DNA of 64,000 bases from Glaucostegus cemiculus (Eukaryota), in the NCBI GenBank assembly GCA_976551045.1, contig CDPCPM010000037.1, positions 9,610,001 to 9,674,000 of the forward strand, read 5' to 3'. Positions 15,076 to 48,013 of this stretch are shown here, in pieces. Position 1 is the stretch's first letter. Each line of letters begins with the position of its first letter. The notes beneath the pieces were generated by a model. It saw only the letters and a list, made by a program, of their open reading frames with translations. It was not told the origin of the DNA and searched no databases. The position numbers and the translations under genes are program-made.

Positions 15076-16139
15076 ATGATTTTTTTCATCATTTTCATAT
15101 GGCTGTAGAATTGGAATTTCTTTGTTGAAATTAGTTATGTTCAGATTCTAACGACAAGAATGTTTCCATATATTCAAAAAAATTGTGACAATGATATAAT
15201 TGTCGTCACATTTACTATGAATATATATATCCATATTTCATTGTTTCAAAGTTGTTAGTTAACATGACTTTTTCATTAAAATAAGCCTTGTTAAAAATTG
15301 TGGTTTAGTCATGAAACTTTGTCAGCCCATCATCTGTTTATATAATTGGAGATGTTAACCACTTGTTTAACCGAATTATGCAATTCAAGGATATGATCTC
15401 AAATAGTGTAACTTTAGACTGTCTGATGTATTGTCACTTGTGAGCGCCAACCTGCGCCAGTGTTGGGCTTTCATGTTGAATTGAATGGCTCAATGCTTTA
15501 TTTCAAGCTTCATCTTTTCATAATCACATGAAGATGCTTGAACCTGCAACTCTTCTGCCACCTTCACTCAGATGTGGCATGTCACCTGTCTCAAGTTAAC
15601 TGAGCCTCAACAGTGTGAGCCTCAGCATCACTTTCCTCCTCTGTCAGTTGCAACCTCCTGGTGCAACAAAATGGATGACTTCCCACCACCATCTCGGAAA
15701 GTAGTGCTGGCCCAGGCGGGAGGCGCAGGGATAACCCAGCTGCTGAATCAGGCTGTGCGCTGGGCCCTGCGACCGCACGCCAAGCAGATGGAGGCGCCAG
15801 ATGCCCTAGTCCGCACCTGCGCAGTCGCCTGCCCCGCCGGCAACTGAAGGGCCGGGTGAGACGTAGCGCCCCCTCCTGGCCGCCCGAAGAGCCTCGTTCT
15901 CACAACGCCTGGCCACAACTCTCGCGAGAATGCACTGAGGGTGCTGATGCAACATGAACTATTCCCATTGTTACACCAAAGCCCCCCCTTGTCAACCACC
16001 CCCGGCAGGAATGGGACTGCTAATGGTGGGCAATAACCTCGAAGTTTGGAGGAATTGCCCTGAAAGTAATGCTCAACTCTGCTCTCTATTGGACAATAGT
16101 CCCCCTATGCAAATAAAGCACGCACGTCACTTCCGTTCT

Positions 16140-16384
16140 TTCTCGGTCGCCATTTTGGCCAGGGAAGGCTCTGTGAATTATTGTCGGCGAGGCTGGGTGT
16201 TCGCCCCCCGTCCCCCTCGCCGCTCGCCCCTCACAAACTTGCCGCGCCCCCCAAAAAAAGTTCGCTCGCTCGCCTCGAGGTTTTTCTTTCTTTTTCAAAA
16301 TCCGGGCAGCCGCTGAGGTCCGGCGGCGCCCAGTCGTCTTTTGTTTGCCCCCCTTCTCCTCCCTCCCGCCCGCCCCCCTCCTCC

Positions 16385-16415
<31 letters not shown>

Positions 16416-16625
16416 GCCCGCTGAGGAAACAGCTCCCTCTCTCCGCGGCCGCTGGAAGCACCGCCGCCCGGGCTGGCGCTCCGGACACTGAAGCGGCGGC
16501 GGCAGCGCGGAGGGAGGCCCTTTGTTTGCGGCTCCGCGCTTCTTCTCACTGCTGCCGCTCCGGCCGGCCGGCCGGCTCCCGCTCACCTCCGCCGGCCAGA
16601 CCAAATCAGAAACAAAAACCACAAG
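16140..16625 (+). other. ADNP: ADNP non-coding exon 1 (5' end approximate)
   Basis: GC-rich, ATG-free stretch ending in the strong donor AAG|gtgag at the CpG-island edge. TSS inferred near the ETS/YY1 motifs. Confidence 0.7.
16386..16412. repeat. (CT)n microsatellite in the ADNP leader
   Basis: Dinucleotide run seen directly. Confidence 0.95.
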
Positions 16626-19600
16626 GTGAGGACGTTTCTCTTTTTTTTTCCTTCTTAACAAGTTTTATCTACATCTACCCAAAAAAAAACCCGAGATTTT
16701 TTTCTCTCTCTCTGCGAACACAAAATAGTCCAAAAGAGGAGAAAGAAAAACCCCACACCGATTGTAAAATGGGTTTAGGGGGGGAAAAGCTGGAGCAGTA
16801 TGTGTGTGATGCATGCAAGTAGTTCTTTATCTTCAGCAATTGGCACTTTATTTGTGGACAAAGATGAATCGAGCTAAGGTAGAGATCCAGCTGCAACGAT
16901 TGCTTTATCCTATTTTGTATGCTGCCTATTCGCATGATTTAAAAAATGCATTAACGCCCGGATTTTTGATTAATTTGCCAAATGCACAGTTTCTTAGCAA
17001 ACACCAGTTGTACTAATCAATCATTTATAATTGTCAATCATTTGTGTGTTTACTGTACTTCAAAGTTAGGTGGGGATTCAGATATTGGTATAATTTACTA
17101 TGTATCGATTTGATGTATATATGATAGGTCAAGTCACCCAATCGATGTTAGTGTTACCTTTCTTAATCGTGGATTACAATATTACCTAAAAGTCTTTCTC
17201 AAAGCTGGATGGATAAGGTATTTTAGGTTTTTTTAAAGGAGGCTCCTGTGTTTCGAGGTTGTTTGATCTATGGCTAAATTAGTTCATTTTATTTCGAGCT
17301 CCCTCAAAATCAGCGCTATTCTAAACATTCAAAATACAAAATAGTAATTGTTACCGGTTATTCTCTGTGAGGCATCAGTCGTGATTCTGATCGAACATTT
17401 GTTTACACGTTTGCTCAATACCTTTTCTAGTGCTCTATGGTCTTTAGACAGCATGTTCAACCAATCCAGACAGCAAGGAACGCCCTAGACAGAAGACGGG
17501 GTGGATGGAAACTGTGATTTAATTTATTTGTTAATTTACATATAAGTATTCACGTGAGTTCACTCGGTGACAGTTCTGCATATTTTATGATGTTGATAAT
17601 ATTAGGGATGGGATAAGTTGACGATGATAATGTTAAAATGTGCACCTCTGGACTGGTTGCCGGCTGTGACGTTGCTGTAAAATGGCGCGAGTACTGCTCC
17701 ACTGCAGACATGAATAGATCTAGGGATCCCCAGTTTTGTAATTGCTTAAGTAGAATTGTTTAGCACGTGTTCTTTGGAGAAATCTTATCGTGATCCAACC
17801 GTTATCAGGTCCAGAATGATGCAGAACACAGGACCAGTGTTCAGGAAAAGGCATTTAGAACTGTTAAGCATCAAATAAAATAGTTCATTTTTCTTCTGGT
17901 TCTTGTGTTGTTTTCAAATCTATTTCAGCTTATAGTGTTTTCTGTGTAAGCTGATGGCAAAACAATTTTCCCATTCTTGCGTGCATAGCCGCCCCCACCC
18001 ATGTTGTAATGCAGCCATGCAGAAAATGAAAATCAATACTGGGTGCAGCAGGAGGCGCTCTTCAGGAGCTGGTTTGGAGGCTCCAGATGCAGGATGAGGA
18101 GTGAGCAGGGAAAGAAATGCTGAGAGAGGAAAAGGTTGGCGCTCCCAGGACAGCGCCACCTGTAGCTTCAATGCCGAAAATGGTGACTGAATACTTTGGG
18201 TTGCATATAAAGCACAGTCTGACATGTGGATTGCAAGAATGCATTTAATTCAACAAGACCTCACCAGAAAACATTTTCACGTCCATTTTCAGGAATGCAT
18301 AGTGATTTACATATGATCAAGCTCCATATTGAATGTCCATATTATTGACACTTTGTCTTTGTATATCAGGATGCATTTGATGACAATCAATGCAAGGCAA
18401 AATATGCATTAGTGAAAAATGATGAGGGTGAAATTGAGTTTTTGGATATTACAGAATAACTGCTAGCTGTGATTTGTCAACTCAGTCAAGCTGTTTGGTT
18501 ACTCCCATTGCCCAATCAAAGAATGATCATGTAAGTTGGATGTTTCAAAAGATGTTTTGCACTTTTAAATTCATTGATGTAGTGATATATCAGCAGTAAT
18601 CAAATGTGTTCTGCCCCTGTATATTTGTGTGTACAGCAGGAGCAAAAATAATATTTTGATAGCCCATTACACTACTCTGTCAACTTAAATAAGAAACTTT
18701 GAGTTATTTATCAGGGAATCAACTAGTTTCAGGTAACAGTTTGGTTATCTATGTTTTGAACCTTGCAATCTATTTGTCAGATTTTTGTCATAAACCAATT
18801 TTGCAGAGTAATATGTGATCCTATCAAATATCTTGAATCTATTGTATTTGGTGTGGCTCTCTGGGAGAATGTGATGTATTAGAATTGTCCACCAAATATT
18901 AGAAATGCTAATGGTTTTTATAGTTTACCATTGGATCCTTTATCTAGGAAGTAAAATTTTATATAGAGATTTGGATTGTAAGTACATGTTTTGTGAATGC
19001 TAAGGTATAGCTGGATACCATTTATCTTCAGCCCAATTCAGTCTTTAGTAGCTATGAACATGGTTTTTGTTTTCCCCACCCACTTTTCACTCTACATTTC
19101 CAGAGCCGAGAGTTTCTGTGAGGAAGGTCTTTGTAGTTTTTTTTTAAGTTATACACTTCTATTTGTTTTGCGATAGGCTTTTCTCTTTTGCTTTTGTGGC
19201 TTGGGCTAAACTTTACTAGTTTGGCTTTTCGTATCTCAGCCAAATGGTTAATGAACTTGGTGATACAATTCTAAATCCAGTAACTTGCAAAGATTCATCT
19301 TATTGGCATCTTATAATCACTTTTCATGTACTTTCTAACAGAGATTGTTGGAAAGTAACTACCCCCACCCCTCAACCTTCAGGGTGAAATAATGGGAAAA
19401 GTTCCATTAATGCCTTATTGAGAATAGCTGACTGGTCATATGTTTGCCATCAAAATAATATGCCACTTTTCTGTATGTGTATACCTCAATCACACAAATT
19501 TACCAACAGAACTATTGTGTGGACTGAAGAGCTAATTCTTAAATTCCATGTATGCCTTATTTTTAACCACTGGACTACTGGCAGCCCAGGAAATTGCAAG

Positions 19601-40437: not shown

Positions 40438-40545
40438 ATGTACCAGCTTCCTGTTAACAACCTTGCAAATCTAAGAAAGGCTCGTAAAACAGTGAAAAAG
40501 ATCCTTACAGATATTGGATTGGACTATTGTAAAGATCATATAGAG
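40438..40545 (+). CDS. ADNP: Activity-dependent neuroprotector homeobox protein, first coding exon (exon begins at 40433)
   Basis: aacag|AAACTATG; encodes [36 protein letters not shown]; donor |gtaag. Confidence 0.97.
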
Positions 40546-43170: not shown

Positions 43171-43396
43171 TTGAGTATGCTGTCATTGAAGAAATCACTG
43201 CTGAAGGAATACTGCATTTTATGAGGTTGTGTCGCTTGGCCTGCTTTAGTCAGTTTTAAGTGATTGTGATTTAGAACAAGTGTTTATGTAGGAAAAAAAA
43301 TATTCTTAGAAAGTTTTGGGTGAAGTTTTTATGACTAATAAATTCAATAGTAGTATTACTCTTAATTTTCCTATGCAACTAAATATGTTCTTCCAG

Positions 43397-43489
43397 GATT
43401 TCAAGCAGTTTGAACCAAATGACTTCTACTTAAAGAACACTACGTGGGATGATGTCTCACTTTGGGACCCTTCTTCTACAAAGCTACAG
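43397..43489 (+). CDS. ADNP: ADNP second coding exon (93 nt)
   Basis: ttccag| acceptor; encodes [31 protein letters not shown]; donor |gttgg; phase 0 at both ends. Confidence 0.97.
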
Positions 43490-44329
43490 GTTGGTTTCAT
43501 TTCAAATGCGGAAATGTTAACTCTCAGGTTTTGTTTAGGACTTGAGACTTGTACCTAGTTATCAGGAAGAGTTTTATTATTAAATTACAACAGTAAACAT
43601 TTATTATCTTGGTCTTTTTTAACTAATGATTTGATTAAAAACTCTGTAGTTTGGTTAATCCACTGTGCTGGCGATTAAAGCATTTGATTTATCTGTGCTG
43701 GTTTGTATATTGTATGTAATAAAAATTATGGGAGGGTGTGGAATCATTTCATGGGAAAGTAAGAGTATTTTTAAAAGATGGAGTGATAATGCTTTTCCCC
43801 CACCTTGGTCTGTCAAGTGAGGTGCTGTCAGTCTTTTCATGAAATGAATTAGCACTTGAGATTGGTGCAAAACTTTGGTTAACCAAAAAGTTAAATAATT
43901 TTGGATTGAGAATTACTGTATGTTTGCATAGAGAATAGTTTGGACTATAATTGCAGAATGCAATACATTTACAAAGCAATATTGATTCCTCTCTGCAGAT
44001 ATGACTTGTGGTTAAATGCAGTTGAAATAATTTGTTCAGATGCTTCCAGCCTTCCCACTAACTGGTGTACCAGCACAATTTGTAAATATGAAAGTAGTAT
44101 CTGTACTACTCTTGTGTAATTATTAAAACTATACCATGGCTAAATAGGGTAGTATGTTACTGATTTAGAGCAGATTTTGGTAATACATTTAAAATTCATA
44201 TCGTATGCACAGTATTTGGACAAATGACTATACAGTACTCTACAGGTACTCTTGTTTGAATCATAAGTAAAATTAGATTGCCTTACATTGCACAACTGAA
44301 CAGTAACCACTGTTGTCTTGCATTTGCAG

Positions 44330-47300
44330 GATTATCGTACAAAGCCATTTTGCTGCAGCGCTTGTCCATTTGCATCCAAATTTTTTTCTGCCTACAAAAG
44401 CCACTTCAGAAATGTTCATAGTGAAGATTTTGAAAACAAAATCCTGATTAATTGCCCTTATTGCCCATACAATGCTGACAGAAAGACCTTGGAGACCCAT
44501 ATCAAGATATTTCATGTCCCTCTCTGGAAAGTACCTAGTGGAGGCAAGAATGCACACCATGAAAAGTCAAAGCAGGATAGCAATCTTAAACTGAAACATG
44601 CTGACAGTGTGGAACAAGCAGTCTATTACTGTAAGAAGTGTACTTACCGAGATCCGCTTTATGATGTTGTCAGGAAGCATATTTACAGGGAACATTTTCA
44701 GCATGTGGCAGCCCCTTATGTGGCAAGAACAGGAGACAAATCAGTGAATGGAACATTTTCTGCCACTAATGGAAGAGAGGATGGGACTGTGCATTGTAAA
44801 CGTTGTCTCTTCATACCCAAAACTTATGAAGCCTTGGTGCAGCATGTTATTGAAGACCATGAACGAATAGGATACCAAGTAACAGCAATGATAGGGCATA
44901 CTAATGTGGTGGTTCCAAGATCAAAACCCTTGATGCTGATAGCACCAAAGCCGCATGACAAGCCCTTAGCTGCTGGAAATTATCAGAGTGTGAAAAGCTC
45001 AATGCAGCAGAATATGAATCGTGTATCCATGTCCAAAAACACACAGAATTCTGCTGTCAATCTCATGTCGAGTAGTGGTCGTCTGCCACCAAAATATGCT
45101 GTTTCATCGATGGCACATAACTATTCTTTGGGTCAACAAATGAGGCTTCCTCTGCCAAGTGGCTTACCAGTTCCTCTTCAGCAGCGATCACAAACCGTAA
45201 AACAGTTAATCTCTGGTGGCAATGGACGGCAGTATGGAGTTGGTGCTGGTGAACAGAGGCGACCATCTCAGATGCAATATAATGTTCAATCAGGAAGCTT
45301 GACTGGTAATAGTGGATCCAGTCAATTATCTATGAAACAGTCACAGTTCAGTATTTCTCAAGCACAAAGGATGCAAGGATTATCAAGTTCATCAGTAAAG
45401 TCATTAGCTTCCCCAACAGGCCTAAGTAATTCTGCTAGCCAGAGTCCTGCATTGGCCGGGTCTGCCGCTCAGAAGTGGAAGATTTGCACAATGTGTAATG
45501 AGCTTTTCCCAGAAAGTGTGTACAGCATACACTTTGAAAAGGAGCATAAAGCTGAGAAGATCCAGGCTGTAGCTAATTACATTCAGAAGATCAATAGTTT
45601 CACAAGCAAATGTCTCTACTGTAACCGTTATTTACCAAGTGAAACGCTGCTCAACCATATGCTTATACATGGACTCTCGTGTCCCTACTGCCGTTCCACT
45701 TTCAATGATGTTGAAAAGATGGCTGAACATGTAAGAATCCTTCATATTGATGAAGAAGTGGGACCCAAGACTGAATCAACATTAACTTTTGATTTGTCTA
45801 CACAGAAAGGTAGCCGCAGTAATATACAGCTCCATGTTACTACATACAGTACCTCTGAGAGTGCCTCCGTGGAGAATACAAATTATCGGCCCCAGAATCA
45901 GAACTTGGCATTTAGAAAGCCAGAAGGGCAGTTGCAGCAGCCAAAGCCACAAGTCAAATCTAAAATAAAGCCAGATTTGAATTCTATACCTCAAACCCAA
46001 ATACCCTATAAAAATGATGTTGGCAAAACCCTTTGTCCATTGTGCTTCTCTATTTTGAAGGGCCCAATATCTGATGCTTTGGCACACCACTTGAGGGAAC
46101 GACATCAGGTGATACAAACAATTCATCCAGTGGAAAAAAAGCTTACCTATAAATGCATTCATTGTTTGGGAGTCTACACAAGTAACATGACAGCCTCTAC
46201 CATAACGTTGCATCTGGTGCACTGTAGAGGTGTTGGAAAAGCACAGAATGGCCAGGATCGAAGTCTTGCTCATGCCAAGGTAACACACTCACCAAGTGTA
46301 ATGCCCATGAAACGAGAATATGAGTATGAATATGGGGACTTTGCTTTAATGAAAAAAAGGAAATTGGATGGTGAGGAAACTGTTCAGAGCTTTACCTTGG
46401 GAGAGGATAAACCAGAGGAGCCTGTAGTTTTAGCTATTGATCCCAAGGGGTATGAGGATGAGTCCTATGAGGCCAGAAAAATGTTCCTTACAAACTATTT
46501 TAATAAGCAACCTTACCCAAGCAGAAGGGAAATTGAAAAGTTGGCAGCTGGCTTATGGTTATGGAAATCGGATATTGCTTCCCACTTTAGCAATAAGAGG
46601 AAGAAATGTGTTCGAGATTGTGAGAGGTACAGGCCAAAGGTATTGCTTGGATTTAATATGATGGAGATGCGAAAAGTAAAGCACAATATGGACTTTGGAC
46701 CTACTTGGAATTTGCTAAATAACAAAGAAATAGATGGCAAGGAACCTGCTACTTTAAAATCAAGCATGGAAAAAGTAAATCAGAAACTGGAGAAAGAGAG
46801 AAGAGATTTGAGTCTGGGATCAGAAAAATTGGAGGGAACTATTTTAGATTTGAGCTCCCAAATGGAGGAAAACTCAAATCCAAACTTGGGAAAGATGAAA
46901 GGGAGAGCTGTGAACCAGTGTTCCGAACACATGGAGGGAAGTGCTTTGGACTTGAGCACTCAGATGGAAGAAAGATCTTCAAATGCCAGCTCTACAATGG
47001 TGGAGGGAACACCATTAGATTTGAGTGCTCAGATGGTAGAGGAAAGTCCTTCAATCAAGAGCACTGAGATGGTAGAAGAAAGTCCTTCAAATGTGAGTTC
47101 TGAGATGGTGGCAGAGAGTCCTTCAAATGTAAGTTCTGATATGGTGGAGGGAAGTGCTTTAGATTTGAGTTCCCAGATGGTGGAGAAAAGCCCTTCAAGC
47201 GTGAGTGCCGAGATGGTGGAGGAGAGCCCATCTAATATGAGTGCTGAGATGGTGGAAGCAAGCCCTTCAAATACGAGTCCTGATAATATGGAGGAAAATG

Positions 47301-48013
47301 CTTCAAATACTTGTGGTGGTGAAGATTTATCATCAAGTGAAATGAGTGGTTTGCAGAGTAGGGAAGAAACTTCTGAAATGGTTCCTGAAGAGTTCAATAA
47401 TGAATTGCAAAAACCTGCATTTACAGAAACTGCATCATTAAAGGATGATGTTTCAAATATGGATGAAGAGCATTATCCTGAGCCATCTTCAGAATCGAAA
47501 GATAAAGAATCAGAAAGTGAAGATTCAGAAGAACTTTCTGAATGCAAAGATGCTGGTTCACCAGCTGAGGATGGACTAGTATCTCCACAAGCATCTGATC
47601 AGGAAGATGTTTCATCTGAGCTGAAGCAAGAGTTTTGGATCAAACGACCATGGACAGATGATGTATCCCAAAGTGAAGAGGAGGAAGAGCCCCCTCGGAC
47701 CTCTGAACCAAAAGCTGCATTGGAAAATGATGAGCAAAATTGGGGAGAGGGGCCAGGTGAATGGAGTGGAACACCATTCCAAAATGAAGGAGGAAAGTGG
47801 GCCAAAGAACGGTCTGAATGGAAGAACGTTTCTCCAGAAAATGAGGAAAGTTTGTCTAATCCATTGTTAGAATGGCAAGGTAACACAGCAGATAGTGAAG
47901 GCGAAGAGCTTGATCAGCTCCTTGATCAGTCAAATGATGGTCTCTCTGATAATGTGGCAGAACCTGTTTGTGGATCTTCATCAGGTGTTGGGTTAAGTAG
48001 TCAACCTGCATAA
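44330..48013 (+). CDS. ADNP: ADNP large terminal coding exon (1227 aa; spliced protein 1294 aa)
   Basis: tttgcag|GAT. Nine zinc fingers (CSAC..H..H through CIHC..H..HC), NLS KKRKLD, atypical homeodomain ([38 protein letters not shown]), PxVxL (PKVLL, 46634-46648), and an acidic tail ending GVGLSSQPA*. The first 4 residues of the track ORF are intronic. Confidence 0.99.
46931..47310 (+). repeat. ADNP: In-frame 36-bp (12-aa) tandem repeat within the ADNP CDS
   Basis: ATG GTR G.. unit starts at 46997, 47033, 47069, 47105, 47141, 47177, 47213 and 47249, with degenerate flanking units. Confidence 0.93.

Follow-up and report, generated by a model that had tools for sequence, protein, structure and literature searches.

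ADNP is a much-studied neurodevelopmental gene, and its repressor complex is usually taken as fixed across vertebrates. The question raised by the locus described here is whether the ADNP of a cartilaginous fish has acquired a further silencing partner. In a stretch of 64,000 nucleotides from the batoid Glaucostegus cemiculus (the window; contig CDPCPM010000037.1), an earlier note, made from the letters alone, had described a repeat-amplified array of motifs of the type that docks the corepressor CtBP, next to the HP1-binding motif of ADNP. The alignments indicate that the array is a real, selectively kept and lineage-specific motif set in ADNP. It suggests an extra silencing partner of ADNP specific to the shark and ray lineage, acting through predicted CtBP docking.

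Four LDLS motifs, their conservation and their repeat origin

All four motifs are in frame on the forward strand of the last coding exon, every one inside an EG[TS]xLDLSxQM unit: ILDLS at 46841-46855 (site 1), ALDLS at 46943-46957 (site 2), the canonical PLDLS at 47012-47026 (site 3) and ALDLS at 47156-47170 (site 4). The earlier note had placed them at these positions, and its distances were also accurate. Site 1 begins 64 residues past the end of PKVLL, the HP1-binding motif (about 65 had been claimed), and successive sites start 34, 23 and 48 residues apart (23 to 48 claimed), with linkers of 29, 18 and 43 residues between them. The interval given in the note opened on an RDLS at 46802..46813 of the same strand; this degenerate look-alike, which reads RVLS, RGLS or RILN in relatives, lies outside the array and was discarded.

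Conservation was measured in an alignment in which the ADNP of the window was joined by that of 22 named shark and ray species, each represented once (n = 23; isoforms and unnamed skate entries were excluded), and changes were counted on the tree. The residue before LDLS is limited to P, A, V or I in these sequences: site 1 is VLDLS in 17/23 and ILDLS in 6/23, site 2 is ALDLS in all 23, site 3 is PLDLS in 21/23, and site 4 is divided between ALDLS (12/23) and VLDLS (11/23). One unnamed skate entry outside the alignment has FLDLS at site 1. The comparison of LDLS with its spacers, proposed in the earlier note as a check, favoured the motifs. Over residues 791-992 a single change was counted at the 16 core positions, compared with 238 at the 186 other positions (window-permutation P = 1.5e-4), and 15/16 core positions were invariant against 77/186 of the others (Fisher p = 4e-5). 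For sites 1 and 2 alone these figures were 8/8 and 23/91 (p = 5e-5). The neighbourhood of these two sites is the fastest-changing part of the tail, with 167 changes over 91 positions and 0 at the 8 core positions. The LDL triplet was invariant at 12/12 positions, compared with 24/46 for other leucines and aspartates in the tail (p = 0.0014) and with 16/24 in the equivalent register of six sister units (p = 0.048). The single core change turns the canonical site 3 into PLDLR in the whale shark and the zebra shark and may represent loss of the site. None of the 40 RNA-read differences listed (of 88) falls in an LDLS core, which is too little to count.

Several points weigh against selection on all four motifs. 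Sites 3 and 4 alone gave 7/8 invariant core positions against 54/95 surrounding ones, which is not significant, and the p values, this one (0.09) included, assume independent positions in related species and are a guide only. The SPS and VE residues of the surrounding repeat are likewise well kept, and the tree is short, with 0.57 substitutions per site in total.

The motifs sit in a repeat-derived insert that spans 46826..47323 of the forward strand and, by codon view and alignment, comprises about 14 units, each 11-12 residues long; four of these carry LDLS, and SPSN[VM]S units account for most of the remainder. Tandem-repeat analysis detected a 36-nucleotide coding minisatellite at 47022..47309 (8 copies, 75% matches) and a 144-nucleotide higher-order period at 46965-47272, both on the same strand; in a more decayed form the repeat, whose unit is 36 nucleotides or 12 residues, reaches back from 47022 to about 46826. 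Sites 3 and 4 lie inside the 36-nucleotide tandem array, and all four sites are in register with the repeat. The PSNVS and PLDLS units lie in a common register, and about three base changes at the core separate one type from the other. When the 454-residue tail was shuffled 200,000 times, LDLS never appeared more than twice, a result that we set aside as a sign of selection and that demonstrates duplication only. The synonymous differences described in the earlier note (TTA/TTG, GAT/GAC and AGC/AGT) are present among the four copies, but they are a weak argument for selection, the copies being duplicates; because the copies share descent, their likeness to one another is not independent evidence either. 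Recent homogenisation of the units was ruled out, orthologous units of rays and sharks being 83% alike and paralogous units within a species 68%.

Distribution of the array and a separate motif in spiny-rayed fishes

A search with residues 560-1000 matched 415 proteins, of which 120 were listed and scanned whole. A CtBP-type motif was present in 19 of the 120: 5 chondrichthyan proteins, 13 from acanthomorph-type teleosts, and one with an unrelated PLNLR in mid-protein. The 101 listed proteins that lack it include those of coelacanth, lungfish, bichir, sturgeon, gar and bowfin, and the non-acanthomorph teleosts among the 120 have none. The mammals, birds, reptiles and amphibians listed are without the motif as well, in line with the statement in the earlier note that human ADNP has no such array. 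At least 40 further members belong to the five chondrichthyan clusters, 37 with four sites and 3, all Callorhinchus, with one. The repeat is present in the chimaera, with ALDLS at site 2 as its single site and PLRMS as the counterpart of site 3. Sister units of Callorhinchus (P0159) that read SPSNLS fit the broad PX[NDS]LS pattern, with a polar X. Chimaeras branched off roughly 410 million years ago, and sharks and rays parted roughly 270 million years ago.

The sole jawless record found, an ADNP-like protein of hagfish (P0323), has no CtBP-type motif, and no lamprey record was identified. The likeness between GLFDLSAQ, near the C-terminus of the hagfish protein, and the DLSAQ of shark site 3 is probably fortuitous. 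The earlier note had allowed that the array was either gained or retained ancestrally. Since the hagfish and all early-branching bony vertebrates sampled are without the motif, the array was more likely gained in cartilaginous fishes than retained from an ancestor. The simpler reading, with one jawless outgroup sequence as its basis, is a gain in the cartilaginous line followed by amplification before the shark-ray split.

The acanthomorph motif, a single PLDLS, lies in the tail of adnpb (P0078, P0089, P0111, P0118, P0121, P0298 and related teleost records), which reads QK[IM]PLDLSEPIAIDSDS in 13 of the 14 such tails among the 120 relatives. Cods have PLNLS at this place, a variant listed in PMC4231743. 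The EPIAIDSDS block also occurs in smelts, pikes, salmonids, herrings, catfishes, eels and bonytongues, where the residues that precede it are unrelated. Because other teleosts with this block have unrelated residues there, the acanthomorph motif is not the shark site; as the aligned tails indicate, it is the product of point changes directly before EPIAIDSDS, independent of the shark array. Homology with shark site 2 was rejected despite a similar distance from PxVxL, the motif sitting in a teleost-specific block. Across 19 sequences, 2 changes were counted at the 5 positions of the motif. By chance PLDLS turned up in 0.035% of 280,000 shuffled tails, and the pattern P[LIVM][DN]L[ST] in 0.19%. 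Two records count against a kept site: Muraenolepis has a degenerate PLNPS, and a partial mudskipper record is without the motif. No such motif occurs in the teleost adnpa and adnp2 records listed. Acanthomorph Adnpb thus resembles shark ADNP in having a CtBP-type motif about 100 residues past the PxVxL position and differs from it in having one site, made by point changes, no repeat, and a PxVxL proline that is mostly lost.

The ADNP gene and its predicted partner

The last coding exon of ADNP occupies 44330..48013 of the forward strand (1227 residues and the stop) and encodes the zinc fingers, the homeodomain, PxVxL and the tail. Searches by tblastn with sawfish and bear ADNP placed two upstream coding exons on the same strand, near 40438 and at 43388-43489, and the AG acceptor of the last exon ends at 44329. 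In Pfam the last-exon protein matched ADNP_N (E = 0) and Homeodomain (PF00046, E = 8.7e-07; exon residues 718-759, 46481..46606, forward strand); the S/E-rich array region is outside every match. The gene is ADNP and not ADNP2, as judged from ADNP_N, the zinc fingers, the homeodomain, PxVxL and a long acidic tail with an LSSQxA end. The closest named record is a sawfish protein with 99.2% identity (10 differences). The ADNP2 paralogue is on another contig (L003), and its protein, which has neither a tail nor a CtBP-type motif, stops about 20 residues past PFVLL.

PKVLL at 46634..46648, forward strand, aligns with mammalian PGVLL as the PxVxL motif, whose HP1-binding role is described in 10.1101/2024.02.05.578923. 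It has the PxVxL form that marks the subunit of the CHD4-ADNP-HP1 complex (ChAHP); Rhinoraja, one of the 23 shark and ray sequences, has PKALL. In the passages searched of that preprint and of an ADNP review, the complex is known from mouse only. From the orthologue, we infer a nuclear location for batoid ADNP. Among the 120 listed relatives the PxVxL proline is missing in 83 (squamates, many frogs and most ray-finned fishes), and notothenioids have PGVFL at the HP1 motif position; HP1 binding may tolerate loss of the proline or may differ between lineages. Mammalian ADNP has a NAP octapeptide that is not retained here: the window at about 45150-45190 aligns as GLPVPLQQ, and the coelacanth has NSQVPVPQ. 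Upstream of the ADNP coding exons, 16086-16822 is GC-rich with long stop-free frames on both strands and is probably a CpG-island promoter.

Three CtBP genes were found in the genome (C19, C151 and C91), with an N-terminal exon 91-96% identical to shark CtBP1; in the alignment the N-terminal lobe of that shark protein matches the mammalian rows. This is the lobe that binds PxDLS (PMC5536941). The family has three full genes here, not two. In RNA from a close relative, 275 reads out of about 18% of run X21 cover 46500-47500 continuously, mainly on one strand and with no joints, which speaks against a cryptic intron that excises the array. The stretch was not found in any indexed record marked RNA, which is no evidence either way.

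Proposed CtBP docking, its rivals and comparable systems

The PLDLS and ALDLS of the array, both named as CtBP motifs in the earlier note, and the VLDLS of its relatives match documented CtBP sites: PLDLS itself, ALDLS in RAI2 (PMC11187106), and ALDLS with VLDLS in EBNA3A (PMC4824013). In the RAI2-CtBP structure the central LDL makes the contact, pairing with a CtBP strand, and single ALDLS sites of RAI2 bind CtBP at about 5 uM, two sites doing only fivefold better (PMC11187106). The array is read as CtBP-docking because its LDL is fixed, with P, A, V or I before it, as this binding mode predicts. We consider it probable from the motifs that the array binds CtBP. That it forms a docking module on ChAHP whose effect is added repression is a step further, towards which we lean only slightly.

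As we read its origin, a 12-residue coding repeat multiplied directly after the HP1 motif in the lineage of cartilaginous fishes. One unit was already ALDLS before the chimaera split, and the shark-ray ancestor had four xLDLS units, which have been kept since. Under the docking model, ADNP, bound to DNA via its zinc fingers together with CHD4 and HP1 (as ChAHP is established in mouse), would present the LDL strands of its acidic low-complexity tail to CtBP, whose N-terminal cleft would receive them. By occupying several clefts of a CtBP oligomer at once, a set of weak sites could recruit it with avidity and in an NAD(H)-dependent way, and CtBP with its histone-modifying partners would be brought to ChAHP sites.

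A number of observations weigh against docking. Just one of the four sites, site 3, is a canonical PxDLS, the trailing K/R of the stricter PxDLS pattern, one of several variants of it in PMC4231743, is absent one or two residues after the core at all of them (SQM, TQM, AQM and SQM), and the flanks are acidic. A motif match alone is weak, PXDLS being present in 295 mouse proteins, and position 5 of the broad pattern is [VTSAC], which excludes the R of PLDLR (PMC4231743). The literature search found no paper on PLDLR as a CtBP site, and there was no CtBP paper on ILDLS among the matches listed. CtBP is unmentioned in the passages searched of the ChAHP2 preprint (10.1101/2024.02.05.578923) and of the ADNP review, as would be expected for mammals, though this lends docking no support. 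The titles and abstracts of the literature matches listed, from a search light on subscription journals, contained no ADNP-CtBP link. In passages of PMC10117376, ADNP and CtBP appear solely as separate TBR1 candidates, and ADNP was not found in the searchable supplements of PMC11187106 (11 files). Among the matches listed for shark ADNP literature there was no mention of ADNP, which is uninformative.

The motifs and their conservation partly bear out the multivalent ChAHP-CtBP repressor variant proposed in the earlier note. Multivalency need not strengthen repression, because the tandem ALDLS sites of RAI2 drive CtBP into polymers and thereby lift its repression. By analogy, the array may bind CtBP and cross-link its tetramers into stacks or foci, which would sequester or inactivate it or nucleate a polymer on chromatin; we regard this as rather unlikely. 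Two ALDLS of RAI2 with a linker of 21 residues, or of 11 residues fewer, suffice for polymerisation and relief (PMC11187106), and the linker that joins sites 2 and 3, 18 residues long, is inside this 10-21 range. CtBP K46, a stacking contact, is in the invariant N-terminal block of our alignment (numbering by inspection). Tandem sites need not inactivate CtBP, however, since the ALDLS and VLDLS of EBNA3A, 24 residues apart, are needed for repression (PMC4824013). ADNP is also a DNA-bound repressor subunit, whereas RAI2 is without a folded domain, and the lone site of the chimaera and of acanthomorphs would be unable to cross-link.

It is improbable that the cores serve as SUMO-interacting motifs (SIMs), whether by themselves or in a dual role with CtBP, making ADNP a multi-SIM reader of SUMOylated chromatin in which the serine- and acid-rich sister units provide phosphorylatable flanks. 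[IV]LDL with an adjacent serine or acid fits the psi-psi-X-psi core (PMC8602451) at site 1 in 23/23 sequences and at site 4 in 11/23, and the array contains 8 [ST]xx[ED] and 7 SP sites. A SIM-like tail element is found in other lineages (EPIAIDSDSD in teleost adnpa and adnpb, TIHLTEE in bear, P0010, and CIELSDD in hagfish), and elasmobranchs are without another. The A of site 2 and the P of site 3, by contrast, fall outside the SIM core and are constant in the 23 sequences. No site of the array ends in DLT, the usual ending of this SIM class. Acanthomorphs gained PLDLS next to a SIM-like motif that they already had, which suggests a different partner, and no ADNP SIM was found by title or abstract among the literature matches listed.

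Least probable of all, we judge, is that an old coding minisatellite in a slowly evolving lineage gave rise to the motifs incidentally and that, with no partner, they are kept by slow rates or by general constraint on the repeat as spacer, charge or phosphosites; the three base changes between PSNVS and PLDLS units of one register and the good overall conservation of the minisatellite part, where the LDLS excess is not significant, speak for it, while the unchanged cores of sites 1 and 2 amid their fast-changing surroundings, the site 2 common to elasmobranchs and chimaera, and the gain of PLDLS in the same tail by a second lineage speak against it. A partnerless repeat fits sites 3 and 4 better than sites 1 and 2.

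If CtBP docking is taken as the preferred reading, ChAHP may have been rewired to CtBP twice and independently, once through the repeat amplification that gave sharks and rays four sites and once through the point change that gave spiny-rayed fishes one, a proposal that we hold only tentatively and think more doubtful than not. If it is true, the four shark sites would provide one per cleft of a CtBP tetramer, or enough for RAI2-like stacks on chromatin; ADNP control of transposons and CTCF would be coupled to the NAD(H) state through CtBP in both lineages; and a minisatellite would have been caught becoming a multivalent corepressor scaffold. In most spiny-rayed fishes, the single-site lineage, the HP1 motif has lost its proline as well. 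The shark and ray array together with the spiny-rayed gain would mean that the corepressor set of ADNP varies by lineage, with a bearing on fish models (medaka or stickleback as against zebrafish-line fishes). The array would also offer a natural four-site case for the question whether tandem motifs recruit or polymerise CtBP, and an example of a coding minisatellite as a source of interaction motifs, its component parts all being of known kinds.

Mammalian ADNP is the orthologue, with a common exon layout, zinc fingers, homeodomain, PxVxL and C-terminal end, and batoid and bear ADNP are 64% identical over 863 aligned residues. From PxVxL the tail measures 459 residues in batoid ADNP and 279-294 in mammals and birds, and the proteins of the latter groups are without the repeat insert and all four motifs. 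ADNP2, the ChAHP2 subunit, is a paralogue that, like ADNP, has a PxVxL and, unlike it, has neither the tail nor a CtBP-type motif. The ALDLS and VLDLS of EBNA3A from Epstein-Barr virus (PMC4824013) are the two non-canonical forms that also occupy sites 1, 2 and 4 in sharks, with similar spacing; EBNA3A is viral, with two sites of tested function, whereas shark ADNP is cellular, with four minisatellite-born sites that include a canonical PLDLS. RAI2, like batoid ADNP, has repeated ALDLS in a low-complexity stretch, with similar linkers and an invariant LDL. It differs in having two identical sites, no folded domain and demonstrated polymerisation, while ADNP, known here from its sequence, is a DNA-binding subunit with four unlike sites.

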